Assembly: GCF_000091665.1 (NCBI RefSeq)
Contig: NC_001733.1
Span: 1-16,550, forward strand
Reading direction: 5' to 3'
DNA: 16,550 nt
DNA from: Methanocaldococcus jannaschii DSM 2661
GTDB taxonomy: Archaea > AGJL01 > Methanococci > Methanococcales > Methanocaldococcaceae
The notes beneath the pieces are model-generated. The model saw nothing but the letters and a program-made list of their open reading frames with translations. It made no database searches and had not been told where the DNA came from. The position numbers were made by a program, and so were the translations under genes. Numbering within the stretch: the first letter of the stretch is position 1; each line of letters starts with the position of its first letter. Shown piece after piece: positions 1,269-14,136 of this stretch.

Positions 1269-4200
1269 TTAATTTTTATTCCGTATCTTACGCACCAATT
1301 CATTTGTATTTATGGTATTTAGTAATTTAATAATATTTTGGCAGTATTTTAAGCAGTCTATGGATTTTTCGTCATACTTTTTTATGATGCCATTAATTTC
1401 ATTGCAGATTTCGTTTAATTCCTCTTTTGGTATTAAGTCTTGGAAGTAAATCCCATAAACTAATGAATCTATTATATTTTCTAAAAATATTCTGTCATTT
1501 TCATTTAATTTATCGTTTAATTCGAACCTCAATTTACTTAACTGTGTTAAAGCGTTTATTATGTTTTTATTTTTGGGGATTACTATAGGTAACTCTCTTA
1601 ATTCTTCTAAGGTAGTCTGCCTAAAATCATCTTTTAATGCTATTGCCGACTTTCCAATGTATATATAAGATATTAACTCACTATTTAGTATTCCTAATAA
1701 ATAGAAGTAATTAATAGGAGTATCTGGCTTTAAAACAAACACATACAAATCCTTTTTTACAACTCCTTCAATATTTCCATAAGATGCCATAATTCTATCT
1801 TGTCTATTAACGATTCTCCGTATAAAGATTTTCTCGGGAGACATAAATAGATTAATAAGCTTTTCGTTGTTTTTATGTTTTGAGAAATCAACATAATTTT
1901 TTAATTTTAATTTAGTTTCATACCTATACACATTACCTTCTAAATATGGCAAATAATATTCGTTTTCTTTTTTATCTGAAAATTTATATTTTGAAGCTAA
2001 AATTCCTATTGTAGATTCTGTTAAATCTTCCAAGTAAGTTAGTGATTCTCTACAATTTTGTTTAATTTTATCTAATATTATGTAGATTTCGGGACTTTTT
2101 GGGAATATTCGACACTTTGGGTCATTTAATATTTTTGAATATTCTATGAAAAGGTCATTTTTAAACTCAAATGAGATTTTTTTAGTTTTTTTAGGGAATG
2201 CATATATCAAAACCAAATCTTCTGATTTTGGAGGTTTTTTATGCAGTATTATTATACAATTATCAACATACGCTCCTGAAAATACATCAAAAGGTAGATA
2301 GATTAATTTTTTCAGACACATTTTTGTAAATAACTCTTTTCTAAGATTTGAATATCTCACACCCGTTCCAAAACTTGATGGGATTATAAATCCTAAATAC
2401 CCCTCATTTTTCAATAATTTACTACTATGCACTATAAATGTTACAAAAATGTCAAATTCAGGAGTATCTCTACGTTTCATAATTTCTTTTTCAGTAGGAG
2501 ATAGCAAATTCCCATAAGGTGGATTTCCAATAATTACATCAAAACCTTCCTCTTTAATAATCCATCCGAAGTCAATCTTCCAATGGAAGGGTTTTAATTT
2601 TTCAAATTCCTCAACACGTGGTCTATTCTTTTTACTTTTTTTACCATTATTCTTTTTGTTATTTCCATTTTGGTAAATCTCAGCGAAATATGCTGGAGTT
2701 ACACTCTCATATATTGAATCTCTAATTTCATCTAATAATTCTTTTAACAGATTGGCTTTAAGTCCGTGGCTTGTTCTATATACTTCATAAAGGAGATGAT
2801 ACGCTTCCACATAATTGTCTAATACATATCCATCTCTTTTTTCAAGCAATTCTTTAGCTTTTTTCAGTTTTTTTCTCTCTTCAGAATTGTGAGCGTTGAT
2901 AATTAAACCTTCAAGAACACACATTATACGCACATTATCGCATAGGTAGGAGATGGAAAGCTGTTTTAAATTTTCATCAATCCATCCAACTAAACTGTTA
3001 CCACATCTTACATTATACTCAATATTTGGCAGTAAAACTTCTCCTCTTTTTAAAGCCTCAACGTCTAAATTCTCAATAAGAGCAAGCCACAACCTAAGTT
3101 TTGCTATTTCAACAGCAATATCATCAATATCAACACCATAAAGATTGTTTAGTATAATACCTAACTTTTCTTTGTAAATGTCCATCTCTTCTCTAAGTAA
3201 ATAATAAATCCTTTTCTTAATTTGGAGCAATTCCTTTAATGCAGATATTAAGAAATGACCACTTCCAACTGCGGGGTCTAAAATTCTTATTTTATCCAAT
3301 TCATCAAGAAAAGCTCTTAAAATATGTTTATTTTCAGCTATTTTACTATCTTCATTAAGAATTTCATCTAATGTTGAGAAATTAATGTCATTTATTTTCC
3401 AATTTTTAATAATCTCTTTAAACCTCTCTACAACAATCGGCTCTATTGTATTTTTGGCAATATAGCTTGTAATCTCATCTGGAGTATAATAAGCACCCAG
3501 TCCTTTCTGCCCTTTTTCTGCCAAAATATTAATTAACTTTTCATAAACATACCCAAGAATATCTGGATTTAATTCAACTTCTTCTGAACCTTCAGATGTA
3601 GATAGAGTGAATTTATACCTTTCTAAAAAATTAATAACCTCTCCAATAATTTCATTATCTTTTATAGTAAATGATAGTTCGTTAGGAACATTATTACTCC
3701 TGAATAATCCACCATTTAAGTAAGGGATGTCTTTATAGTAAGGATTAGTTCTAATATTTTCTTTTCTTTCATCTTCTGGAGTATTAAGCACTTCATAGAA
3801 TAATGGTTTAAGATAAGCATCATAATAATTTATTAAAACGTTAGATTTTTTGTAATCTTCATAAGTTCTTCTAAGCAAATCTCTTGGGACTATTCCCTTG
3901 TCCTCAAGGAATTTTATAAATATTAACCTGTTCATTAACAATACTGCAAATTTTTTCTTGTCCAATTCTGATGTATTGGGTGGAGCTTCAATACAATTGT
4001 ATAAGCATTTTTTAGTGCCTTTATCTTTTTCTGAACTACTTTTATCTTTTTTCTTAACATCCTTAACATCTTCAAATCCAAAAACAAGTTTTACGAACTC
4101 TTTATAGAATTCATTAGTAATTTCTTCTTTTTTATGTTTAATATTCTTTGTAGCAACTTCAATATATTCTTCAATATACTCCTTTGAAAAACAATAATAA

Positions 4201-4805
4201 AACTCAGAAAATACCTGTTTTAATTCATTTTCTAAATCTTTATCTTTTTTATTTTCAAGAACATACTCAAAAATAGATTTAAGATTCAATTCTTTGAGAG
4301 TTCTTATTTCTTTAATTGTATCATCATAGTGTAATAACACCCATTCTAAACCATTAGTGGCTATACCAGTATCTACGCCATAAGATTTGATAATTAACCA
4401 CTCCTTAACCTGGTGAATTCCAGAATCTTTTTTATTTAAATCACTACCTAAAGGTTCGGCTTCGATAAGAATTTCTTTGTTAAATACTGATACTCTATAA
4501 TCAGGAATTTTTCTATCTCCTAATGGTGATTTTTTAGATATTTCTGATGTGAATTCATAACCCAAGAATTCTAAAATTGGTTCTATAACCTTCTGCCTCG
4601 TAAATGGTTCTGGAAGTTGCCCTCCAAAATCATCAGATTTAAAATTGTATCTACCCTTTTTCAATAACTCTTTAAATTTGCCTTCTAATTCTGGAATTTG
4701 CTTAATAGACAAAATAATATTCCCAACAAGCTTAATAAAATCCTTCCACTTGTTATAAACTTCTTTTGGAATTTCTATATCAGAACACAATTTTGTTTGA
4801 GCCAT
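1269..4805 (-). CDS. Type IIG-like restriction-modification fusion: N-terminal HsdR_N/PD-(D/E)xK-like module, gamma-class N6-adenine DNA methyltransferase (Eco57I/PglX-like) and C-terminal target-recognition domain
   Basis: Motif X GAYYTPDEI. Motif I ILDPAVGSGHFL (about 3249-3278). CGNSLVGW insert. Motif IV GNPPYG (NPPY = 2514-2525). N-terminal IPDYRV...LIEAEPLG...IATNGLEW. C-terminal LRELPIVIP...IDSLVYGIYF, typical of TaqI/Eco57I-type TRDs. The track start at 4814 is GTG; I prefer ATG at 4805, preceded by AGGTGGT. Confidence 0.9.
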   Translation of the reverse strand: MAQTKLCSDIEIPKEVYNKWKDFIKLVGNIILSIKQIPELEGKFKELLKKGRYNFKSDDFGGQLPEPFTRQKVIEPILEFLGYEFTSEISKKSPLGDRKIPDYRVSVFNKEILIEAEPLGSDLNKKDSGIHQVKEWLIIKSYGVDTGIATNGLEWVLLHYDDTIKEIRTLKELNLKSIFEYVLENKKDKDLENELKQVFSEFYYCFSKEYIEEYIEVATKNIKHKKEEITNEFYKEFVKLVFGFEDVKDVKKKDKSSSEKDKGTKKCLYNCIEAPPNTSELDKKKFAVLLMNRLIFIKFLEDKGIVPRDLLRRTYEDYKKSNVLINYYDAYLKPLFYEVLNTPEDERKENIRTNPYYKDIPYLNGGLFRSNNVPNELSFTIKDNEIIGEVINFLERYKFTLSTSEGSEEVELNPDILGYVYEKLINILAEKGQKGLGAYYTPDEITSYIAKNTIEPIVVERFKEIIKNWKINDINFSTLDEILNEDSKIAENKHILRAFLDELDKIRILDPAVGSGHFLISALKELLQIKKRIYYLLREEMDIYKEKLGIILNNLYGVDIDDIAVEIAKLRLWLALIENLDVEALKRGEVLLPNIEYNVRCGNSLVGWIDENLKQLSISYLCDNVRIMCVLEGLIINAHNSEERKKLKKAKELLEKRDGYVLDNYVEAYHLLYEVYRTSHGLKANLLKELLDEIRDSIYESVTPAYFAEIYQNGNNKKNNGKKSKKNRPRVEEFEKLKPFHWKIDFGWIIKEEGFDVIIGNPPYGNLLSPTEKEIMKRRDTPEFDIFVTFIVHSSKLLKNEGYLGFIIPSSFGTGVRYSNLRKELFTKMCLKKLIYLPFDVFSGAYVDNCIIILHKKPPKSEDLVLIYAFPKKTKKISFEFKNDLFIEYSKILNDPKCRIFPKSPEIYIILDKIKQNCRESLTYLEDLTESTIGILASKYKFSDKKENEYYLPYLEGNVYRYETKLKLKNYVDFSKHKNNEKLINLFMSPEKIFIRRIVNRQDRIMASYGNIEGVVKKDLYVFVLKPDTPINYFYLLGILNSELISYIYIGKSAIALKDDFRQTTLEELRELPIVIPKNKNIINALTQLSKLRFELNDKLNENDRIFLENIIDSLVYGIYFQDLIPKEELNEICNEINGIIKKYDEKSIDCLKYCQNIIKLLNTINTNELVRKIRNKN

Positions 4806-4847
4806 AACTACCACCTAACATCTAAAAAATTTAAATTATTGATTAAT

Positions 4848-5174
4848 TTAAAGTTTCTTTAAAATTTGCTCATATTCGTCCTCTTTTACATATTTTCCAC
4901 AAACTGGAATAAATCTCTTTGGCTTAACAACTTTTGGATACTTTCTAATATTTTTTAAGATGATAACTATCCATGGTTTTTTCTTTTTCTTACCATATCC
5001 CCACTTTTTATTTGAATCTTCAATATATTTTTTAAATTCCTCTTCTGTTAAAAATAAATTATTTTTATATTTCTCAAGTATCTTCATAGGATTTTCAAAA
5101 AATTCTACTTCCTCAATCTCTGCCTCTCCATAAAATCCCTGCTCTTCCCTTGAAGCATAAAATATTATCTTCAT
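4848..5174 (-). CDS. ASCH/PUA-like fold small protein (apparently the C-terminal two-thirds of the domain)
   Basis: 108-aa ORF. The pattern IIFYAS...FYGEAEIEEV...LTEEEFKKY...WIVIILKNIRKYPKVVKP resembles archaeal ASCH-domain proteins from memory. Weak SD (AAGGGA). Confidence 0.55.
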   Translation of the reverse strand: MKIIFYASREEQGFYGEAEIEEVEFFENPMKILEKYKNNLFLTEEEFKKYIEDSNKKWGYGKKKKKPWIVIILKNIRKYPKVVKPKRFIPVCGKYVKEDEYEQILKKL

Positions 5175-5181
5175 TCCCTTT

Positions 5182-5295
5182 TCAAGTTTTGGTTAATGTT
5201 GCTGGTTTGACAAAAACATTTTTATGCTCATCCAAAATCCTACCAATTAATGACTTGGGAATTGGAAATGTAGCTCCTACAATTTTATCATCCAT
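5182..5295 (-). CDS. Unlisted 37-aa ORF (MDDKIVGATFPIPKSLIGRILDEHKNVFVKPATLTKT); probable N-terminal fragment of the ASCH-like gene, or alternatively a short AbrB-like peptide
   Basis: ATG at 5295..5293 is preceded by a strong SD AGGTGAGG. TGA at 5184..5182. It is below the 60-aa cutoff of the ORF track. It ends 7 nt before the ATG of the 108-aa ORF, in a different frame. Confidence 0.45.
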   Translation of the reverse strand: MDDKIVGATFPIPKSLIGRILDEHKNVFVKPATLTKT

Positions 5296-5334
5296 AACCT
5301 CACCTCTATTATGTAGAATATTTTAATATAGTGT

Positions 5335-5526
5335 TTAAAATTTATTCTTCAACCTCACTATTTTAACCCTACCTTTCTTAACAATCTCAACTCTTCCCTC
5401 TTTTTTAAGTTCATTTAATGCAGTATAAAACTTTCTCGTATCAACTTCAAGTATTTCAATTAATTTCCGTAATGCAATAATCTTTTTCAGATTGTAAGAG
5501 TTCCAACAATCTATTTTTAACATCAT
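5335..5526 (-). CDS. Winged-helix DNA-binding fragment (recognition helix plus wing); likely the 3' part of a frameshifted gene
   Basis: 63-aa ORF. LIEILEVDTRKFYTALNELKKEGRVEIVKKGRVKIV looks like helix-3 plus the wing of a wHTH. It overlaps the 135-aa ORF by 71 nt in another frame. Confidence 0.5.
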   Translation of the reverse strand: MMLKIDCWNSYNLKKIIALRKLIEILEVDTRKFYTALNELKKEGRVEIVKKGRVKIVRLKNKF

Positions 5527-5863
5527 CTACTGTATTAGAAGATTCTTTCAAATTATTTCCATGTGAAATGTTAATTATTAAACCATTAACCAAAGTAGAT
5601 AATGTATTTAGTTGATTAACAATGTCATTCAATTCTTTCTTGCTAACATAATCATTATTGTTAGAGTTAATAACATTATTAAACTCTAATTGAATTCTTT
5701 CAATTTCTTTCTTAATGAAATTTAGTTCGTTTTCAAAATTATCTAATTTTTTATTCAATTTTTCAAAATTTTCAAAGATTTCTTTTCTTTCACCCTCTAA
5801 CTCTTCAATTTTTTCAATATAGTTATCAATGCCTAACAGCTTAATAATAGCCTTTTTAAGCAT
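5456..5863 (-). CDS. Coiled-coil protein ending in the first helices of a wHTH (5' part of the split regulator gene)
   Basis: 135-aa ORF with ATG at 5863. Heptad-like E/K/L/N-rich region. The C-terminus NRLLELLQSEKDYCITEIN* stops in the middle of a wHTH-like motif. Confidence 0.7.
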   Translation of the reverse strand: MLKKAIIKLLGIDNYIEKIEELEGERKEIFENFEKLNKKLDNFENELNFIKKEIERIQLEFNNVINSNNNDYVSKKELNDIVNQLNTLSTLVNGLIINISHGNNLKESSNTVDDVKNRLLELLQSEKDYCITEIN

Positions 5864-5890
5864 AATAACAGCTCCAAGCAGTGATTAGGT

Positions 5891-5920
5891 TTCATTACCT
5901 TTCATTACTCATCATTATTA
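5891..5920. repeat. Three tandem 10-bp units TTCATTACCT / TTCATTACTC / ATCATTATTA just upstream of the coiled-coil/wHTH gene
   Basis: Read directly. Lies 28-57 bp upstream of the ATG at 5863 (minus strand), between a TATA-like stretch (about 5920-5935) and the start codon. Confidence 0.6.
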
Positions 5921-6103
5921 TAAATATAGTAAATAAAATTTACCTTATTTTTAATGTGTCCCTCAATTAATTTATTATACAAAATGACTGTCCATATTGA
6001 TAAAATCGGCAATATACGCTCTATAAGTGGTATGCACTTTGAAAATTCTTAACTTATCCTGAACTTTTAGGCAACCAATAATAAATAATATGCAATCTCC
6101 TTT

Positions 6104-6158
6104 TTAATTGATTAATTAATCAATTAAGCAATTAATTGAGTATCAATTGATTAATTGC
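6104..6158. repeat. Palindrome cluster: perfect 24-bp palindrome TTAATTGATTAATTAATCAATTAA (6104-6127), then GCAATTAA...TCAATTGA...TTAATTGC (6128-6158)
   Basis: I checked the reverse complement base by base for 6104-6127. There are 8-bp inverted arms at 6128-6135 / 6151-6158 and an internal 8-bp palindrome TCAATTGA at 6143-6150. The 12-mer AATTGATTAATT occurs at 6106 and 6146. Confidence 0.85.
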
Positions 6159-6322
6159 AAAACTTTTTATACTTCAATTGAGAAAAGAAAATGGTTGAAA
6201 ATAGTTAAAAACGAAAAGCTTATATTTTCTTAGAAATATACAACTAAAAAAGGTTATCTACTCTCAATTGGTTATTACACAAAAAGCCTACCCAATTTAC
6301 AAACTTGGAATTAACTCACCTG

Positions 6323-6330
6323 TTTATATA
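6323..6330 (+). promoter_or_regulatory. Archaeal TATA box TTTATATA for the 144-aa membrane protein gene
   Basis: Exact match to the methanogen TATA consensus, about 53 bp upstream of the ATG at 6383. A GGTG SD lies at 6373-6376. Confidence 0.5.
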
Positions 6331-6382
6331 AATGTTACTAAAAATTAGAAAAGTAGAAAGATAATGCCCTTATGGTGTTGTC

Positions 6383-6817
6383 ATGGAAAGTAAAGAATAT
6401 CGCAAATTAGAGTATAACTATAAAGCTTTTTTAATTTTTTCTAAAGTTGCCATGCTAACATTTCTAACCGTCGGTATTGGTGCTATATTTACGCCACAAA
6501 CATATCCAATAATGCCAACCATTGGTTTTATAGTTGTTGCTGGAATCGTATCCTTAATAGGTATGACTATCGGAGCATTAATTATTCACCAACAATATGA
6601 GACGTTACCAGCTAACGAAAAGTTAGAATTTAAACAAAAACTCCTACCAGAAGCATACTACATTTGTATAGAATTGTTTGGTTACGGTTCATTAGTATTA
6701 TTATACAACACATTTACATCAAACAATCCTACATTATGCGTTATGTCTCTATTAATGGCAGGATTGTTTATATTGGTAGTCTTAGTAATCTGGTATTTTG
6801 GCTACAAAAGTTATTAA
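6383..6817 (+). CDS. Integral membrane protein, about 4 transmembrane helices, unknown function
   Basis: 144-aa ORF with ATG, SD and TATA. Four long hydrophobic segments (AFLIFSKVAMLTFLTVGIGAIF, TIGFIVVAGIVSLIGMTIGALII, YYICIELFGYGSLVLLY, LCVMSLLMAGLFILVVLVIWYF). Confidence 0.8.
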   Translation: MESKEYRKLEYNYKAFLIFSKVAMLTFLTVGIGAIFTPQTYPIMPTIGFIVVAGIVSLIGMTIGALIIHQQYETLPANEKLEFKQKLLPEAYYICIELFGYGSLVLLYNTFTSNNPTLCVMSLLMAGLFILVVLVIWYFGYKSY

Positions 6818-6822
6818 GTATC

Positions 6823-6948
6823 TTATTCCTTAGATGCATCCTTAACTGGCTTTTTAAATAGCCAATAATTCAAAACTGCAAAGGCAATAATTAACAATCC
6901 ATACATCAACATGGCAGTAAAGAATATCCACAAATTAGCATCTTCCAT
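6823..6948 (-). CDS. Unlisted 41-aa single-pass membrane peptide (MEDANLWIFFTAMLMYGLLIIAFAVLNYWLFKKPVKDASKE)
   Basis: ATG at 6948..6946 preceded by GGTGGT. TAA at 6825..6823. Last ORF of the minus-strand replication block. Below the ORF-track cutoff. Confidence 0.4.
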   Translation of the reverse strand: MEDANLWIFFTAMLMYGLLIIAFAVLNYWLFKKPVKDASKE

Positions 6949-7005
6949 AACCACCAGCCCCTATTTTTCTACTTATGATTATGGCAACTAATGAGATATA
7001 AACCT

Positions 7006-7428
7006 TTACTCCTCTAACGGAATTAAAGCAACAATATGCCCTTTTTGGATTATAATCCTCTCAACTTCCTTATCATCAACCTTAGCGTCCAAAACCATAA
7101 TATTAAACCTATCCTTTGCCTTGACAGTTCCCTCAACAATCATACCATTATCTAAGTAAATTTTACACTTTTTCTTATGAGCAAATAATAGCATATAATC
7201 CTTATAATCGTCATCCTTCTTCTTAGGTTGCTTTTTCATCGGTTTTCTTTGTGGTTTATTCTGCTTATTCAAATTCTCAACCTCCTTAGCTATTATATCA
7301 TAATGCTTACTTTTAATGTGCTTTTTAATTGCCTTTACATCTGCATTAGTGTAATTACAGTATGGACATTTATAGAAAAATCCCTCTTTCTGTATTTCCA
7401 ATTTTTCAATATAATCATCTATGTTCAT
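7006..7428 (-). CDS. C2H2 zinc-finger plus basic linker plus Sm/LSm-like domain protein
   Basis: CPYC-x12-H-x4-H (classic C2H2). Lys-rich linker KQNKPQRKPMKKQPKKKDDD. The C-terminal KIYLDNGMIVEGTVKAKDRFNIMVLDA...IIIQKGHIVALIP fits the Sm1/Sm2 pattern. ATGA start/stop overlap with the primase gene; SD GGTGA. Confidence 0.8.
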   Translation of the reverse strand: MNIDDYIEKLEIQKEGFFYKCPYCNYTNADVKAIKKHIKSKHYDIIAKEVENLNKQNKPQRKPMKKQPKKKDDDYKDYMLLFAHKKKCKIYLDNGMIVEGTVKAKDRFNIMVLDAKVDDKEVERIIIQKGHIVALIPLEE

Positions 7429-8750
7429 TTTTTCACCAAATAGTTATTTTTATCCAACTCATAATACTTTTTATAAATCTCTATTTGCGTTTTTGCCTCT
7501 GGTATGTTCTCTTTTAGCCACTTAATAGAGCATACTTTACCATTCCTATCATAGAGATACCTAACTTCATAATCTATATGTTTGATGTATTTGTTGCCAT
7601 ACTTGGAAGCCCAACGGTTCAATAACTTTATAGTTTTATCTCTTCCATAGCCTAACAGCTTACATAATGAAGTTAAATAATAACAGCCTCTCATTTTGCC
7701 ATCTTCCCAATTGGAATTGATTAACTCATTAAGGTAGCTCTCCAACTTTACCTTATTTAATACAACTTCCTTATCTCCTATGGTTGTTTTGATGTATTCC
7801 CTCTTACTATGCTCTACCTTAGGTTTTGCCTTCTTATTGGTGTTTATTTCCAAATCTATCTTAATATCGTTATTCACTTTCTTAGTTGCTTGATAATATC
7901 TTAAAGCATCATCCACAAAGTCCGTTAAATCCCCTCTTATCTCTCCAAAGTTTTCATAGTATTTTGTTAGCTTCCTTATGAAGTATGGCTTTACATTCTG
8001 CAAATATATCGGTTTAAACTTCTCCACTTTGTTAATTGGAAACGGTATGCTTATCGGTGTCTTTCCCTCAATGTCTGCATAGTATAAGCTAAATGGTGCT
8101 GTTACAGTCATGTTTTCCTTATAGATTGATAAGTCAATACCCGTATCTCCTTCCTTGCCAACAAAATCTAACAACTTCCTTAGCTTAAAGTTTAGAAAGT
8201 TTGTTAATATGGTGCTTCCTTCAACATAGCCCTTATTTAGTATCTCATTAGGCAAATATCTGGCATTAATCCAAATATGAAAGCCCTTACTCCCACTAAA
8301 CTTTATGTGGATGTCCTTAACTCCATAATCTTTAAAAATCTCTCTTACTTCCTTAGCTATCTCCTTAGATTTCTTAAAGTTGCCTTTAAAGTCAATATCT
8401 ATAACCCAATCCCAATAATTGTAGTCGATAGCTGGATACTCCAACTCATATCTTGGACTCTCAAAGTAGTATGGAGAGCAGTAAATACTCCTAAGGTTCT
8501 CTATAATCCAATCCTTAAAGTTGCCTCTATAATCCCATAAATCAATATGCCTTAAATATGGCTTCTCCCCCTTTGGGATGTTGTTATAGTTCCAATACTT
8601 TGGATGTCTCCAATTGATTTTTCTATCTCTATCCAAATCCAACCTATGGCAACTTAATAACCTATCTAAACAAAAATAATATAAATATCTGGAAGTTAGT
8701 TTATAGTAGGTAAGCCTATCCATAGCTACCACCATTATAGTGGTCTCCAT
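7425..8750 (-). CDS. Archaeo-eukaryotic primase (AEP) / primase-polymerase with a C-terminal PriCT-like helical domain
   Basis: Motif I WVIDIDF (DxD). Motif [13 protein letters not shown] (sGxGxH). Motif III region GIDLSIY...TAPFSLY. An alternative start at the ATG at 8723 (M10) is preceded by GGTGGT and would remove the overlap with the helicase gene. Confidence 0.9.
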
Positions 8751-11700
8751 TGGTCGGATTCTGGATTATCCACATCTCCATTTTTCCACAGCTCTTTTAA
8801 AATCCCCCGTGCTGTATCTTCCGATATGTTGAAGTTTTCAGCAATTTCAACCGTAGTGTAGATTTTTGGATTTTGTAGCATGTAGTTTAAAATCTCTCTT
8901 TTTAGTTGGGATAACTTCCTACTTTCCTCTATAAGTTTGTTAATCTCTTCTAACTCTTCATCCTTTTGTTGTGTTTCTTTTATCTCTTCTCCAACCAATT
9001 TAAATATCTCCTTAACCTTATCTGGTGCTTTAATTCTTAACAAAACCCCTAAGATTGTCTTAAACCATATTTTTAATGCATCCCTAACATCCTCTAAATC
9101 CACATACTCCTTAAACTTAAGTTTAGCATAAGCTTTAGCCATATACTCAATTTGATTAAATAATCTATCGGAATATCCTTTAAATAGTCCGTAATCTCTC
9201 AATAAATCCCTTAACTTCTCCTCTACCTCCCAAAGTGTCTTTAATGCATCTTCCTTAAACTCAATATCCTTATTTTTAATGTAGCTAATGAATAAAGCAC
9301 ACTCGTAAGCTTCCAAATTCTTTTGTTTTATGAAGTTATTGTCTTCTCTCAATCTCTTAACTTTGTAGGTGTGTAGTTTAATCTCCTTCCAATCCTCGTT
9401 GGTGTATGGCTTTAATAGATAGATTAATGGAATTCTATCTGTCATTCCCCTCAAATTCTTCAAAGTAAAATCCAATATTTTTGACAATAACCATTCTGAT
9501 GCATTTAACTGGGGGTTAGCTCCCAATATATTATTAACTATCTTTTTAGCCCTATCTTCTGCCTCATTTCTATCATAGTCATGTTGTTTTAGTAACTTTT
9601 TAGCGAAGTAATTTATCATAGCTTCTTTAAACTCTTCAAATCCCTTTAAGTGGTAAATTTCCCAAAGCTCCATTAAGTCAATATCCTTAATGTTCCCTAC
9701 TCCAATCCATGGGCTTACCCCAATCATTGGGATGTTATAACCCTCTCTTTCTCTCTTCCAAATACCTGAAGTTTTACCACTTTTTAATAAGTCTAAGTCG
9801 TTGCCTACTCTTAAAATAAAGTCCATCATCTCTTCAATAAATATCGGTCTATTGTGGTTCATTGGGATTATTCCTTTTTTATAGAATTTTATGTTATCTC
9901 TGGAGATAACTAAACCTATTAAGTTCTCTATGTTAGGCATATCTACTCTTATCATGTCCTCAGTAGTGTTGTGGAGTTTTGCCAATGGTTCTATTGTTAA
10001 ACTCTTCCCTTGTCCATAGCTTCCAATGAACAAACAATCAATAGTTTCAGGCTTTAAGTGTCCATCCCTATTTTTATCCCAATATATATGGGATGATGCC
10101 AGTATCTCCAATGTTATTAAAGTGTCTATCGTTGGATTTTTCCCTTCTTTGTCCAATATTGCCTTCACTTCGTAAAATACCCTATCTTTAATATAATCTA
10201 AGGCATTACTATAACCAGCATTCTTAACCTTCCTAACAAAGGCATCATAATTGAAATTTATGGTCTTTTGTGGATTGATACTTAAGCCCTCTATGTAATA
10301 CTCTCCTTTATGGTTTGTTTTCAAAATTCCTACAATTTCAACATCCCTTAGGTTGTTAATCTCTGGTGTGTATGGAAGATAAACCCTATAAACTTCATCC
10401 GTTTCTTTTAATTGGATTATGGCTATCGTTAAATCCCTTTCCAACTTTATTGGTTCTCCATCTTCATCTTTGAATAGGGATTCTGAATATTTTATGTCTC
10501 TGCCACACTCTGGACACTTAATTTTATAATCTTGGCTGTTTTCCACTGGCTCATACAACCTTATAACTTCACAATTACATCCCTTGTTATTGCCGTTCTT
10601 ATCCAAATCAATACATACATAACGTCTCAAAATTGGTCTGCTTTTCCTATGGTGTATTATTCCCGCAATATCTCCCCTAAATACACACAATTTATTCCTA
10701 AACTCTCCCCAATCCTTAGCTTTTGTCATTATGGTCCTACTTCTTAGTGTCTCTAAGCCAATTATGTTAATCTCTAAAGGCTTAAATTGGAAGTATTTTT
10801 CATAATAAACTTTATAAATCATCTCTATGGCTTCATACGGTTCATTTAAGAGTAAGCTCCTAAAGTAAGCCCCTACAATTCTCTCTTTGCCCTTTAACCT
10901 ATCAACTTCGTTAATGTCAAATTCAAAGCCCTCTGGTGTTAATCTCTCTTCTATGAATTTTTTAAGTGATTTTTTCAAATCTTCCATAAATTCGCTTTTA
11001 GCTTCTGCCTCTTGGAATGCTTTTTTAGGTAAATACTCATCTAAGATGTCTTTAATGTCTTCATAGAATTTGTAAGTTAGATAAATGTATTTTCTATCGT
11101 AATCCTCTGGATTTTTCCTTATGTCAATCCATTCTAATTGTTTGTAAATCTTTAGGTGTTGCTTTAATGTTCCTTCTCCAATTTTCAACTGCTCTATGGC
11201 TTTATTCATAAATTCGTCAAATCTCATACCTTCAAAGGTTAGGATTGTGAATATTTTAGCAGTTTTTTTACAATCATCGTTTTTATAACTCTTTTTTAAT
11301 GTGTTGGCTCTCTCGCCGATTTTGTTGCATAGGTCTTCAATCATACTATTATCTTGTATATTATGCAGTAATTGGTGAAGCATAGTGAAGTCGTTATTTT
11401 GTTGGTGAAGTGCAGTGAATTCTTCACCACATTGGTGAAGCATAGTGAAGTCGTTATTTTGTTGGTGAAGTGCAGTGAATTCTTCACCAACAATTTCACC
11501 AATTTTTATGTCTCTATTTTGTTGGTGAAGCATTTCACCAGCTTTCACCAATTTTAATACGACTTCCTTAGGGTCGTGTATCTCCCAGAAGCTCCAACCT
11601 AAAATTGACGTAATTGCATCCTCCAATCTATATAGTTTGTCGGTTGGCAATTCTGCCCCTAACTCCCATAAACCATATTTTAATAATAGTTGCCTCTCTT

Positions 11701-11929
11701 TCAGAGGTAGCTTGTTTAATGAAAATAGCCATATATTTCCTAAGATTTCAGTATTGTTTTTGTTATGCTCGTCTAATTCTTTGATAGTATTAGGGTCATA
11801 TCTAATGTTCAGTAATTTTATGGCAACCTCTAAAACATCCTCTGGATATTGATTAATTTCATTAATTGTATATTCCAATACATTGTTGTTCTGTATGTTA
11901 TTTATACTACCATTTACATATTTATCCAT
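8735..11929 (-). CDS. Divergent MCM-like AAA+ helicase with an N-terminal extension (LHQ decapeptide repeats plus a wHTH-like segment), OB/zinc-ribbon, ATPase core and C-terminal winged helix
   Basis: Zn ribbon CNCEV...CPECG after VFRGDIAGI. Walker A GSYGQGKS. Walker B-like [15 protein letters not shown] (compare AAANP). Arg-finger-like [11 protein letters not shown] (compare SRFDLIF). C-terminal [51 protein letters not shown] before the ATG at 11929. Confidence 0.7.
11371..11490. repeat. Intragenic tandem duplication, 2 x 60 bp, 59/60 identical
   Basis: 11371-11430 and 11431-11490 differ only at the last base (c/a). They encode the repeated [21 protein letters not shown] degenerate third register appears at 11513-11530 (ATTTTGTTGGTGAAG again exactly 60 bp later). 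Confidence 0.95.
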
Positions 11930-12635
11930 GCCTAACCACCTCTGTTGTTGTTAGGTTTTTCGGAGTTTTGAGGGTATGGAGATACCTTTTATAGGTTCTC
12001 CCTATCTTTTCCAGTATATTTAATAAAGCTATTTTTGAAGTTTTAACTTTATAAACATTAAATGATGTTCTTTTATGTAGCATTATCAACTTGAAAGCAT
12101 TATTTTCAAATTCGTGATATAGAAATCTTTCAAAAGTTGATATTGCAAATACTTTTATGGAACATATACAATTATCCACATTTATTCTATTGTATCCTAA
12201 AATCAGTTTAGTTAAATATTCCAATTTATATAATTTATGTGTTGAAGCATCTTGATATTTAACCAATGAACCACAACTTAAAAATAACATCTCATCTTCC
12301 AAAGGTAGATTACACAATGAAAATAGCCAATGGGATAAACTTAATTTTATATAATACAACTTACTATAATAGTTAGTTAGTAACTTTATAGTGCCTTTCA
12401 ATACATTGTCAGAATAGCATTTAATCCATTTAACCAAATATTCCAAATCTATGATAATCAAAAAATATATATAATTGTTTATGACACACATATAATCACC
12501 TCCTTTGCAGTGGTTTTCCAAGTATTTTCCCAATTTGGGGAAGGAAGGGGGCTTAACACTATTTTTTTTAATTTCAAAGTATATAAACCTTACGAAATTA
12601 TCGGAATTATCTGTTCCATATTCAGGTAATGGCAT
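11922..12635 (-). CDS. Stand-alone paralog of the N-terminal domain of the MCM-like protein (237 aa from the ATG at 12635; 189 aa if started at the ATG at 12491)
   Basis: Matches by eye: [17 protein letters not shown] vs [17 protein letters not shown]; [16 protein letters not shown] vs [16 protein letters not shown]; [13 protein letters not shown] vs [13 protein letters not shown]; KVFAISTFE vs [17 protein letters not shown] start/stop overlap with the helicase gene. The internal ATG at 12491 is preceded by a near-perfect SD AAGGAGGTGAT. Confidence 0.6.
12580..12587 (-). promoter_or_regulatory. Perfect TATA box (TTTATATA on the minus strand), candidate promoter of the replication operon
   Basis: The plus strand reads TATATAAA at 12580-12587, 89 nt upstream of the SD-preceded ATG at 12491. 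It lies inside the N-terminal extension of the 237-aa ORF. Confidence 0.45.
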
Positions 12636-12890
12636 AAAAGCTTACTGGATTATATTTAACTATTAAAATTTATTAATTTTATTGAGAATAATGCGGAATT
12701 TTTACGCAGAGGAATTTTTTATTATCCAAACTATCGATTTAGATAGTTCTGATAGATTTAAACTATTGAAGTTATTTTATGTAATATTTTCTAAAATTTA
12801 CGGACATTTTCCGAGATTGCTACCACGATATTGTATAATTAAACAAACACCACTTAGGTGAAAAATATACCAGTAAAGAATACATTCATC

Positions 12891-12920
12891 TCGGAAAATA
12901 TCCGTAACGGAAAATTTTCA
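12891..12920 (+). repeat. Double-dyad repeat copy 1: TCGGAAAATATCCGTAACGGAAAATTTTCA
   Basis: Read directly. Matches copy 4 without gaps at 27 of 30 positions. Confidence 0.9.
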
Positions 12921-13094
12921 ATGCACAAACTTTTAATTATCTGTAAATATAAAAATTGTCAATAATTATTTTATATTTACCAGTGAAATTTGAAAACGTG
13001 AAATAATATCTTACATGTCATTATACTCGGAATTTTGCAAGTCCTTATATTTGAAATATCGGTTACACACACTATTGTAAAATACTCGTACTTA

Positions 13095-13127
13095 TCGGAA
13101 ATTTTCCGTGCGGACATTTTTCGAAGG
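13095..13127 (+). repeat. Double-dyad repeat copy 2 (diverged): TCGGAAATTTTCCGTGCGGACATTTTTCGAAGG
   Basis: Ungapped comparison with copy 3 gives 25/33 identities. The first half, CGGAAATTTTCCG, is a 6+1+6 palindrome. Confidence 0.75.
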
Positions 13128-13177
13128 AAGACATAATTTTAAGCCATAACAACATAAAAGAGAATGGATTACAAATA

Positions 13178-14014
13178 CTACTTCGGAAAATATCCGCACG
13201 GAAAATTTTCGCAGTCAGTAGTATATACATCTTCCATAAGTTTTGTAGGTATGTTATATTCATGTTCATCAACGTTTTTTTCTTTCATCATGAGATAATT
13301 TACAATTGCTAAAATCAATATTAATATTATAAATCCGAGAATTATCGCCTTCCACCTAATTTTTCCAGATTCTAATGTTTCACATAATACGCCTAAACCA
13401 AATATAAAACTAAAAGCACCAGTAATCGAATAAATAACTGATTTTGGAGGAATATTTTCAAGATTCTCTATAAACAACTGCTCAGAACGTGATTTCAGAA
13501 CTCTATCTATTATTTCTCTGTAGCACTTATTATCGTTTTCTTTGGTTTTCGAATCATTTATATTTTCTTCAATTTTTAAGTTTTGATTATTATTTATAAT
13601 TTGAATATCATTTTCCGTTTTTTTAACGTTTAACGAGTTTTCTATATTTTCGTTAATTTTAAACGTCTTAAATAGCTGTAAAGCAACATCAATTAATTTT
13701 TTTCCAGATAATTTCATAAGATTATTGTATTCATCCAATATTTCTAAAGTATGAGTTTTATTTTTCTTAGAATATAAGTGCTTTAGGTTTAAAATTTTAT
13801 TTTGTATGATTATTTTGTATGTTTTTTCATTAATTTTCATTACATGTCCGATTTTTTCAAATATTGATAATAACTTTTCAAAACCTTTTACTCCAACGTT
13901 AAAATTTCCAGTTTTAGAAGATAACGAATATCTCTTATTTTTACTATCATAAGTTGCCGATATTTCTAAGTAACTAATATTTACATAAAAATTACAGATA
14001 ATTTCGTCGGGCAT
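13178..14014 (-). CDS. Hypothetical protein with a soluble N-terminal region and two C-terminal transmembrane helices
   Basis: ORF track 13178..14038, whose start is TTG. I prefer ATG at 14014 (MPDEIICNF...), preceded by AAGGTG. TM segments VIYSITGAFSFIFGLGVLC and AIILGFIILILILAIVNYLMM. Confidence 0.7.
   Translation of the reverse strand: MPDEIICNFYVNISYLEISATYDSKNKRYSLSSKTGNFNVGVKGFEKLLSIFEKIGHVMKINEKTYKIIIQNKILNLKHLYSKKNKTHTLEILDEYNNLMKLSGKKLIDVALQLFKTFKINENIENSLNVKKTENDIQIINNNQNLKIEENINDSKTKENDNKCYREIIDRVLKSRSEQLFIENLENIPPKSVIYSITGAFSFIFGLGVLCETLESGKIRWKAIILGFIILILILAIVNYLMMKEKNVDEHEYNIPTKLMEDVYTTDCENFPCGYFPK
13183..13222 (+). repeat. Double-dyad repeat copy 3: TCGGAAAATATCCGCACGGAAAATTTTCGCAGTCAGTAGT
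   Basis: Overlaps the last 13 codons of the 286-aa ORF (...TTDCENFPCGYFPK*). Similarity to copy 4 extends through AGTAGT. Confidence 0.9.
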
Positions 14015-14094
14015 ATTCGACACCTTTTTAAAATTCAACTGTAAATTGACGGTTTGGTAGTATTATATTATTGTGATTACAAAGAATATACCTT

Positions 14095-14136
14095 TCGGAA
14101 AATATCCGCAACGGAAAATTTCCGAAGTTAGTAGTG
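14095..14136 (+). repeat. Double-dyad repeat copy 4: TCGGAAAATATCCGCAACGGAAAATTTCCGAAGTTAGTAGTG
   Basis: Lies 57-98 bp upstream (minus-strand sense) of the 286-aa ORF. The second half, CGGAAAATTTCCG, is a 6+1+6 palindrome. Confidence 0.9.

Follow-up and report, generated by a model that had tools for sequence, protein, structure and literature searches.

Why does the gene of a plasmid helicase contain a dense array of one short DNA word, written in both orientations and partly laid out as a near-perfect tandem duplication? The question is raised by the small extrachromosomal plasmid of Methanocaldococcus jannaschii, the species with the first archaeal genome to be sequenced (1,739,927 bp in three contigs). 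The plasmid was analysed over its complete length of 16,550 bp, which is referred to as the window below. It has about 28% G+C (~70% A+T), and nearly all its long open reading frames (ORFs) lie on the minus strand. One of these encodes a divergent MCM-like helicase, and the array is found inside this gene. An earlier note, made from the sequence alone, described an iteron-like array created by the duplication and named two alternatives: an origin of replication embedded in an initiator gene, as in phage lambda, or purely a repeat of the protein. Here, the plasmid is compared with 13 related contigs, and the DNA of the homologs is read on the coding strand, codon by codon.

A hexamer array inside the helicase gene

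By direct reading, positions 11371-11430 and 11431-11490 are identical at 59 of 60 positions, the sole difference being the last base (C/A), and Tandem Repeats Finder calls a repeat of period 60 at 11371-11489 with 2.0 copies and 100% matches; the duplication is thus as the earlier note described it. The heptamer GGTGAAG has seven matches on the plasmid where 1.0 is expected, all of them inside 11374-11530, and seven or more matches are reached in 0 of 200 shuffles, i.e., the count is far above chance. TTCACCA has 13 matches (2.1 expected), of which 10 are inside 11373-11550. A search of all 1.74 Mb of the genome finds the composite sub-patterns GGTGAANNNTTCACY and TTCACYNNNNTTCACC at the array alone, and the array word forms the densest hexamer cluster of the whole plasmid.

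The gene and the features of the array are, in window coordinates:

8735-11929, minus strand: gene of the divergent MCM-like helicase, 1064 residues (fold search, Pfam match of a homolog, invariant residues)
11374-11549 (176 bp), both strands: hexamer array of 14 sites, TTCACC or TTCACT in both orientations (motif counts)
11423, 11483, 11495, 11534 and 11544: sites reading TTCACC on the plus strand
11374, 11404, 11434, 11464 and 11524: sites reading GGTGAA on the plus strand
11384, 11414, 11444 and 11474: sites reading AGTGAA, the complement of TTCACT, on the plus strand
11371-11430, minus strand: copy A of the 60-bp tandem unit, which encodes 20 residues and holds four direct sites and one inverted site
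11431-11490, minus strand: copy B of the unit, 59/60 identical to copy A
11474-11488, minus strand: 6-3-6 dyad GGTGAA-GAA-TTCACT, with one more direct word, TTCACC, 10 bp downstream
11414-11428: second copy of the 6-3-6 dyad
11523-11540: TGGTGAA-GCAT-TTCACCA, a palindrome upstream in the array, outside the duplication
11351-11536, minus strand: linker predicted to be disordered, residues 132-193 (pLDDT 23-32)

The array does lie inside the helicase gene, a minus-strand ORF, and the start coordinates given earlier for both orientations are right to within one base. On the coding (minus) strand, nine copies are direct, all on one 10-bp register, and five are inverted. The description as iteron-like units holds in so far as these are repeated sites at the DNA level. 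It does not extend to classical iterons, since the words have 6 bp, follow a 10-bp register and occur in both orientations, while classical iterons are direct repeats of 17-22 bp.

One layout and many words

The array is found at the same position inside the helicase gene in 12 relatives, and the elements carry 9-14 hexamers each, in both orientations. The layout is constant while the word is switched between lineages:

TTCACC / GGTGAA: M. jannaschii plasmid, L002, L015 and L016
GCCACC / GGTGGC: L003
GCTACY / RGTAGC: L007 and L018
GCAACY / RGTTGC: pMP-2 of Methanocaldococcus sp. 16A
GCCATT / AATGGC: L006
GTTACT / AGTAAC: L004 and L005
ATACCC / GGGTAT: L013, a homolog at 26% identity

In an unbiased scan of whole contigs, the densest strand-symmetric hexamer cluster is the helicase linker in 12 of the 13 related contigs, and the top hexamer has 6-14 copies in the linker of ~200 bp compared with 0-1 in the remaining ~3 kb of the gene (3 in the case of L006). 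The same scan finds 10 copies of ATACCC/GGGTAT, with 6-3-6 dyads, in the same linker of L013, a contig of 42% GC. A matrix of contigs by words is diagonal, i.e., each word clusters in the array of its own lineage. According to these counts and a pattern search of the host genome, the words cluster nowhere else on the related plasmids, nor in the host genome. For pMP-2, the word was predicted from the peptide ahead of the DNA, which is only a partly blind prediction, as the peptide fixes most of the bases.

Measured from a common anchor, the inverted sites of all close lineages stand near 17-36, 66 and 78, and the direct sites at 37, 87, 97, 117 and 127. The direct sites continue past position 127 where a second unit exists, and one 10-bp register is kept throughout the array. 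The same sub-unit recurs in every lineage: an inverted word, three bases and a direct word (a 15-bp dyad), with a second direct word at +10 bp. Six homologous slots are 87% identical among themselves within an element, while the same slot is 57% identical between lineages. The 3' end of the word (ACY) is common to most lineages and the first three positions vary.

Some of the relatives have other features of note. At 983-1045, L002 has an intergenic run of GGTTGC, in which four exact copies and one near copy follow each other at intervals of 9-10 bp, all in one orientation. The pMP-2 lineage has this word, whereas the array of L002 uses TTCACC, and the run may be a remnant or a set of decoy sites. 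The record of pMP-2 (L012, CP187553.1, 1-13123) was submitted as a complete plasmid of 13,123 bp and consists of exactly two head-to-tail copies of one 6,562-bp unit, which agree at 99.985% with a single gap; judging from this sequence, the real plasmid either has a size of about 6.56 kb or exists as a dimer.

Selection acts on the words

The protein alignment reveals the repeat segment as the single hypervariable part of an otherwise well-conserved helicase. Within it, the word is read in several frames, TTC ACC as Phe-Thr, cTT CAC Caa as Leu-His-Gln, GGT GAA as Gly-Glu and a further one as tG GTG AAa. All these reading contexts carry the word of their own lineage and switch together (FT/AT/VT, LH/CH/GY, GE/GG/SN). 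Constraint at the protein level could not produce this pattern, because unrelated residue pairs change in such a way that the codons still spell the word or its complement.

The substitutions follow the same pattern. Between the M. jannaschii plasmid and L002, whose helicase genes otherwise differ by 17%, 0/70 positions have changed in the hexamer cores and 16/92 in the spacers (p = 8e-5); at third codon positions the counts are 0/23 and 6/31. Between L004 and L005, 1/45 positions have changed in the cores and 11/50 in the spacers. To judge from these comparisons, the hexamer cores are under purifying selection relative to the spacers. Codon use in the array also differs from that in the rest of the gene, with CTT for 5/9 Leu compared with 6/109, GGT for 4/4 Gly compared with 9/47 and TTC for 4/4 Phe compared with 14/38. 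In L003 and L004 the codon choice departs in parallel, in each case toward the element's own word.

According to the earlier note, homologs that keep the amino-acid repeat and lose the nucleotide motif would speak for a repeat of the protein alone. The opposite is found, as the peptide drifts and the architecture of the DNA is kept. With the cores frozen and the codons dictated by the word, the comparison strongly favours the DNA-level alternative of that note, and we consider it very probable that the array is a cis element of the DNA in which selection is on the words and the peptide is a passenger. The LHQ repeats are not a defined solenoid, as had been considered, since the predicted structure is disordered over the whole linker and the peptide is hypervariable.

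Array and winged helix form one cassette

Directly beside the array, the gene encodes a domain that is a candidate reader of the words:

11033-11350, minus strand: winged-helix domain of MarR/SarA type, residues 194-299 (model with pLDDT 85.9, fold matches)
11138-11176, minus strand: recognition helix, residues 252-264
11150-11578, minus strand: exchangeable cassette of the array with the first helices and the recognition helix, residues about 118-260 (sliding-window identity)

Residues 188-299 (112 residues) were modelled separately, with a pLDDT of 85.9, and the fold matches are winged-helix proteins of MarR/SarA type, many of them with structures on operator DNA, the top ones being operator-bound MepR, PecS, MarR and MftR (probability 1.0, TM-scores of 0.5-0.6). 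Several family members have weak, sub-threshold Pfam HTH matches for this domain.

Two mosaic pairs, L002/L004 and L005/L006, are 90-100% identical at residues 1-105 and 262-1064 and only 3-40% at residues ~118-255. Because they diverge in that stretch alone, their sequences reveal that the array passes from plasmid to plasmid in a single cassette with the first helices and the recognition helix of the winged helix; the wing itself stays conserved across the exchange. In pairs that differ in their words, the neighbouring primase-polymerase (prim-pol) is 89% identical and has no divergent block. As carriers of the specificity, the N-domain, the MCM core, the C-terminal winged helix-turn-helix (wHTH) and the prim-pol were rejected, since they are near-identical in pairs with different words. 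With the joint inheritance of the cassette and the rejection of the other carriers as indirect support, we lean slightly towards the helicase's own winged helix as the reader of the words.

Whether each recognition helix corresponds to one hexamer was also considered. Such a code looked perfect for 10 proteins, and it was rejected as it is broken by the pairs L003/L007 and L007/L018.

The number of units rises and falls

The idea that the duplication created the array does not hold. The one-unit relatives L006, L007, pMP-2 and L016 already have nine sites, which stand at the same positions; a second 60-bp unit brings four more direct sites and one inverted site, together with 20 residues. Unit number does vary among the relatives, which have one or two copies of the 60-bp unit or, in the GTTACT lineage, two or three of a 30-bp unit. 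L002 has two units that are mutually identical and yet differ from the units of the M. jannaschii plasmid at 7/60 positions. Because of this, the copies appear to have been either homogenised or duplicated independently, so that units would have been lost and gained repeatedly. We take the 2 x 60-bp duplication to be a recent event of slippage or unequal exchange that took the sites from 9 to 14 and lengthened the linker by 20 residues; unit number rises and falls within the plasmid family.

Homogenisation by slippage or gene conversion alone was rejected as an account of the array, as the spacers are not homogenised, and the inverted copies and the sites outside the tandem units switch too. 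Hairpin-templated correction could contribute to the homogenisation, but leaves the conserved layout unexplained.

The contig L008 (Logan contig, ERR9765756; 1325-4407) has 0 mismatches to the window and lacks one 60-bp unit. It was rejected as proof of a copy-number polymorphism, as k-mer assembly may collapse a perfect tandem repeat and single-base gaps split the gene. These gaps divide the helicase gene of L008 into ORFs of 587 and 432 residues, and they could be real variants or assembly errors, as could the missing unit. The same variation is seen in another lineage, with two units in L015 and one in L016, and here the same caveat of assembly collapse applies.

The helicase and its neighbours

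The helicase is arranged as a helical N-domain, the array-encoded linker, the MarR-like winged helix, a C4 zinc/OB region, a P-loop ATPase and a C-terminal wHTH. For the protein itself (P0001), Pfam finds the C-terminal HTH_24 alone and no MCM match, and there is no match in NCBIfam or in sequence searches of PDB. The homolog P0015 (26% identity), on the other hand, matches the Pfam MCM P-loop domain PF00493 with 26.2 bits (cut-off 23.3); P0017 reaches 18.8 bits against the same domain and cut-off. The full-length AlphaFold model was built from 10 sequences and has a mean pLDDT of 60.7. When it is searched against PDB with Foldseek, the top 50 matches are all archaeal or eukaryotic MCM subunits, with E-values from 8e-6 to 1.5e-3 and probabilities of 0.96-1.0. 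With 0.13-0.34, the TM-scores of these matches are low, which reflects the low confidence of the model in its AAA+ part. Invariant in the family alignment are the four putative zinc-binding cysteines C439/C451/C472/C475, the P-loop (Walker A) residues G639/G641/K642/S643 (GxxGxGKS), the acidic Walker B residues E699/E700/D703 and the pair D831/R832, of which R832 may be the arginine finger. The assignment of the earlier note is supported by the fold matches and the Pfam match of the distant homolog, and the helicase is accordingly described as divergent and MCM-like, although the ATPase core of the model is a low-confidence prediction.

The family is very small: 5.8 billion proteins contain 9 of its clusters, and an exhaustive search among 1.84 billion representatives gives 6 matches. 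Two of the six representative matches, P0013 and P0014, match the LHQ segment only and were discarded; they are unrelated low-complexity repeat proteins and the matches are judged to be due to chance. PLSDB contains no match to the plasmid by DNA or protein, and no relative of it is found among the IMG/VR viral contigs.

The helicase gene has two neighbours of interest:

7425-8750, minus strand: prim-pol (AEP) gene, which overlaps the helicase stop codon and is kept beside the helicase in relatives
11922-12635, minus strand: upstream paralog P0002, 237 residues, with the N-domain and part of the winged helix and without the array segment

P0002 aligns only to residues 18-113 and 218-254 of the helicase, i.e., the repeat segment is skipped, and the stand-alone paralog does lack it, as the earlier note had stated. 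P0002 is not conserved in the relatives, where unrelated small ORFs are found upstream, and it has the look of a partial duplication that took place locally, in the M. jannaschii plasmid only. In L003, the element with words of GCCACC type, a tyrosine integrase gene lies upstream of the helicase (1876-3174), and some family members may thus be integrative.

Is the array the origin of replication?

We suggest that the word array could be a loading site which the initiator-helicase recognises by itself, and thereby the origin of the plasmid; for this reading as a whole we see an even chance. The words would be docking sites for the helicase's own MarR-like winged helix, encoded right beside the array, and the word-NNN-word dyads would seat dimers or opposed helicase subunits. 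The helicase would load itself at the array, i.e., at the origin of replication, and the adjacent prim-pol would then prime. As the words and the reader helix adjoin in the gene, we propose that side by side they would recombine as one specificity cassette, so that each lineage would acquire a private word. That the cassette is a swappable address, with the origin written beside the reader helix and a new private origin-initiator pair made by one recombination, is put forward tentatively.

Three observations argue for this. The plasmids have no Orc/Rep gene; the 6.56-kb minimal relative pMP-2 has a helicase, a prim-pol and small orphan ORFs only. Further, of the repeat elements observed, the array alone goes with the helicase gene in nearly the whole family, L013 at 26% identity included. 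Finally, with 9-14 sites, the arrays are similar in number and arrangement of sites to the origins of the staphylococcal SaPI islands (PMC9371898). Taken by itself, the statement that the array is the replication origin of the plasmid falls a little short of an even chance.

Several points weigh against this reading. At the array, the GC skew of third codon positions does not shift. Nor is a long AT-rich tract for unwinding evident beside it, the only AT-rich stretches being spacers of 14 and 23 bp inside the array; with the whole plasmid at ~70% A+T, no distinct AT-rich tract stands out nearby. AT-rich intergenic regions with other palindromes could be the origin instead, on the window at ~6100 and 12690-14136 and on pMP-2 at 5650-6290. 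On the side of the reader, the winged helices of L003 and L007 are near-identical although their words, GCCACC and GCTACC, differ at position 3, while L007 and L018 have GCTAC in common but different helices; array and winged helix could be inherited together simply because they are physically linked. The distant member L014 has only a weak array in its linker. Finally, no paper was found on the origin or the repeats of the small plasmid of M. jannaschii, the sole mention being that of a zinc-finger/Hfq-like protein (PMC3543421).

A change of the raw GC skew near 11 kb was rejected as evidence for an origin, as the only significant partition at third positions follows the genes, at 4590-7545. 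Within this part of the window the third-position GC skew is -0.55, compared with -0.11 elsewhere (z = 4.85, permutation maximum 3.96). It is driven by the small genes 4848-5174 and 7006-7428, and the segment may be compositionally distinct and perhaps separately acquired.

Two of the relatives have other palindromes. In the AT-rich intergenic region of the minimal plasmid (L012, 5650-6290), there are three TTACAAAATTGTAA palindromes and two CG-containing dyads (AAAGTGCCGATT.../AAAATTGCCGAATT...), a rival candidate for an origin. In L014, about seven TGCCAGAnTTTGGCA palindromes, 20-30 bp apart, form the densest word cluster of that contig (6940-7110), and they could be a site array outside the gene.

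Other functions of the array

The main rival, which we consider unlikely but which fits all the DNA-level evidence equally well, is that the array binds the plasmid's own protein for copy-number control, incompatibility or autoregulation, and that the origin is at the AT-rich intergenic palindromes. The bound protein could be a roadblock to transcription of the helicase gene, or it could handcuff plasmid copies to each other. The array lies within the transcribed gene, so a bound protein would meet RNA polymerase, and the clusters of intergenic palindromes on both the window and pMP-2, the silent third-position skew and the lack of an evident long AT-rich tract are all as expected for such a control site. 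However, the intergenic palindromes do not contain the lineage word, and a word-specific helicase would have no address there. Nor does any repeat other than the array accompany the helicase through nearly all the family, as far as the homolog at 26% identity.

It is improbable that the array acts through the structure of the nucleic acid, as hairpins or cruciforms in single-stranded DNA (priming or a single-strand origin) or in mRNA (translational control). The predicted fold energy is far beyond that of shuffled sequences at 37 C (z = -7.3 for RNA and -7.6 for DNA), and both arms of the dyads change together between lineages, as stems would. Yet independent stems need no common word, and all sites of an element have one. 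The direct copies also exceed the inverted ones (9 vs 5), and in every lineage the extra direct copy stands at exactly +10 bp, a position that puts the word into another reading frame and is consistent with one face of B-DNA. Pairing alone would not demand a conserved ACY end, yet the word keeps this end across lineages. At 85 C, -12.8 kcal/mol are predicted to remain for the M. jannaschii plasmid and -19.4 for L003, but the structure is nearly gone in L004 (-4.9) and pMP-2 (-3.1 kcal/mol).

A partition (centromere-like) site bound by a segregation adaptor is very improbable; arrays of short words with both orientations and helical phasing do resemble R1 parC and the heptad arrays of pSM19035, but no gene of ParA/ParB/ParR type is found by Pfam on the 6.56-kb minimal plasmid, which has small orphan ORFs of no assigned family, or beside the helicase in the relatives. 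That the array is a tandem repeat of the protein alone (LHQ/FT decapeptides), expanded by slippage and with the DNA motif as a by-product, can hardly be upheld: the segment is in frame and translated, its 60-bp unit is a multiple of three and unit number varies as in many repeat proteins, but it is the DNA layout and not the peptide that is conserved, the same word switches together in several frames and both orientations, synonymous sites within the words are frozen, codon use is forced and the predicted peptide is without a fold.

Comparison with known systems

In lambdoid phages, type-specific iterons go with a type-specific DNA-binding part of the initiator. These phages have their origin halfway along gene O, and additional iterons make the O protein longer (PMC7466680, PMC6022878); in O of Shiga toxin (Stx) phages, two more iterons add 13 residues (PMC7466680). 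The M. jannaschii array is similar in that the sites, inverted repeats in both cases, lie inside the coding sequence of the candidate initiator and that extra sites lengthen the protein, one 60-bp unit adding 20 residues. It differs in having 6-bp words on a 10-bp register and no evident long AT tract, whereas lambda has 19-bp iterons and a clear AT-rich tract. Further, O recruits the host helicase through P, while the candidate initiator of the archaeal plasmid is itself an MCM-like helicase.

Rep (or PriRep) of the Staphylococcus aureus pathogenicity islands (SaPI) is a self-loading helicase whose winged helix reads 6-12 penta- or hexanucleotide iterons in both orientations; its iteron words are element-specific, and the primase gene is adjacent or fused (PMC9371898). 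The M. jannaschii plasmid family resembles this in its 9-14 hexamers of both orientations, in the winged helix that its helicase contains and in the prim-pol gene next to the helicase gene. Rep, however, belongs to the superfamily 3 (SF3) clade and has a C-terminal winged helix, and the SaPI origin directly follows rep, with an AT-rich region at its centre. The plasmid helicase is of the MCM clade with an N-terminal, MarR-like winged helix, and its array is inside the gene with no comparable AT-rich region. By analogy, the M. jannaschii array would combine the in-gene position of the lambdoid origins and the self-loading of SaPI in an archaeal helicase of the MCM clade.

SV40 large T and papillomavirus E1 are initiator-helicases in which a separate origin-binding domain reads words of 5-6 bp (GAGGC pentamers, E1 sites). 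As in the array, these words occur in opposed orientations, and there they nucleate a double hexamer. Unlike the plasmid protein, they are SF3 helicases of eukaryotic viruses, with non-coding origins, and word switching by cassette exchange is, to our knowledge, not described for either of them. Neither was any description found in the literature of words and a candidate reader that stand side by side and are exchanged as a cassette.

Dimers of MarR type recognise short palindromes whose half-sites are spaced by about one turn of the helix. Residues 188-299 match MarR repressors in their predicted fold and the 6-3-6 dyads fit dimer operators, although here the domain is inside a helicase, no MarR dimerisation helices are verifiable and the sequence similarity is sub-threshold.

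Iteron plasmids are reviewed in PMC4980987. The theta iteron plasmids (pPS10, F, P1, R6K, RK2) have repeated sites and their own winged-helix initiator, for which there is a candidate here, and their sites define incompatibility and copy control. They differ in their direct repeats of 17-22 bp in non-coding DNA and in a WH1-WH2 Rep that recruits DnaB, and none of these traits matches the M. jannaschii array. In sequence annotation of Pfam/NCBIfam type, the M. jannaschii plasmid has no match to a Rep family.

Implications

For the question how MCM-type helicases of archaeal plasmids and viruses find their start sites without Orc/Cdc6, the array provides a precise candidate, with 14 sites, a candidate reader domain of 112 residues and seven natural word variants as built-in controls of specificity. 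Even as a control site, it would be a plain example of a DNA code that overlaps a protein code and switches from lineage to lineage. If the array is the loading site of the helicase, an MCM-clade helicase can be its own sequence-specific initiator, and strong selection at the DNA level can dictate the sequence of a protein linker. If, in addition, array and reader form an exchangeable address, the family would be an archaeal, MCM-based case of incompatibility switching with a natural set of at least seven orthogonal replicons, and replicons as compact as 6.5 kb could then become orthogonal genetic tools for hyperthermophilic methanogens.

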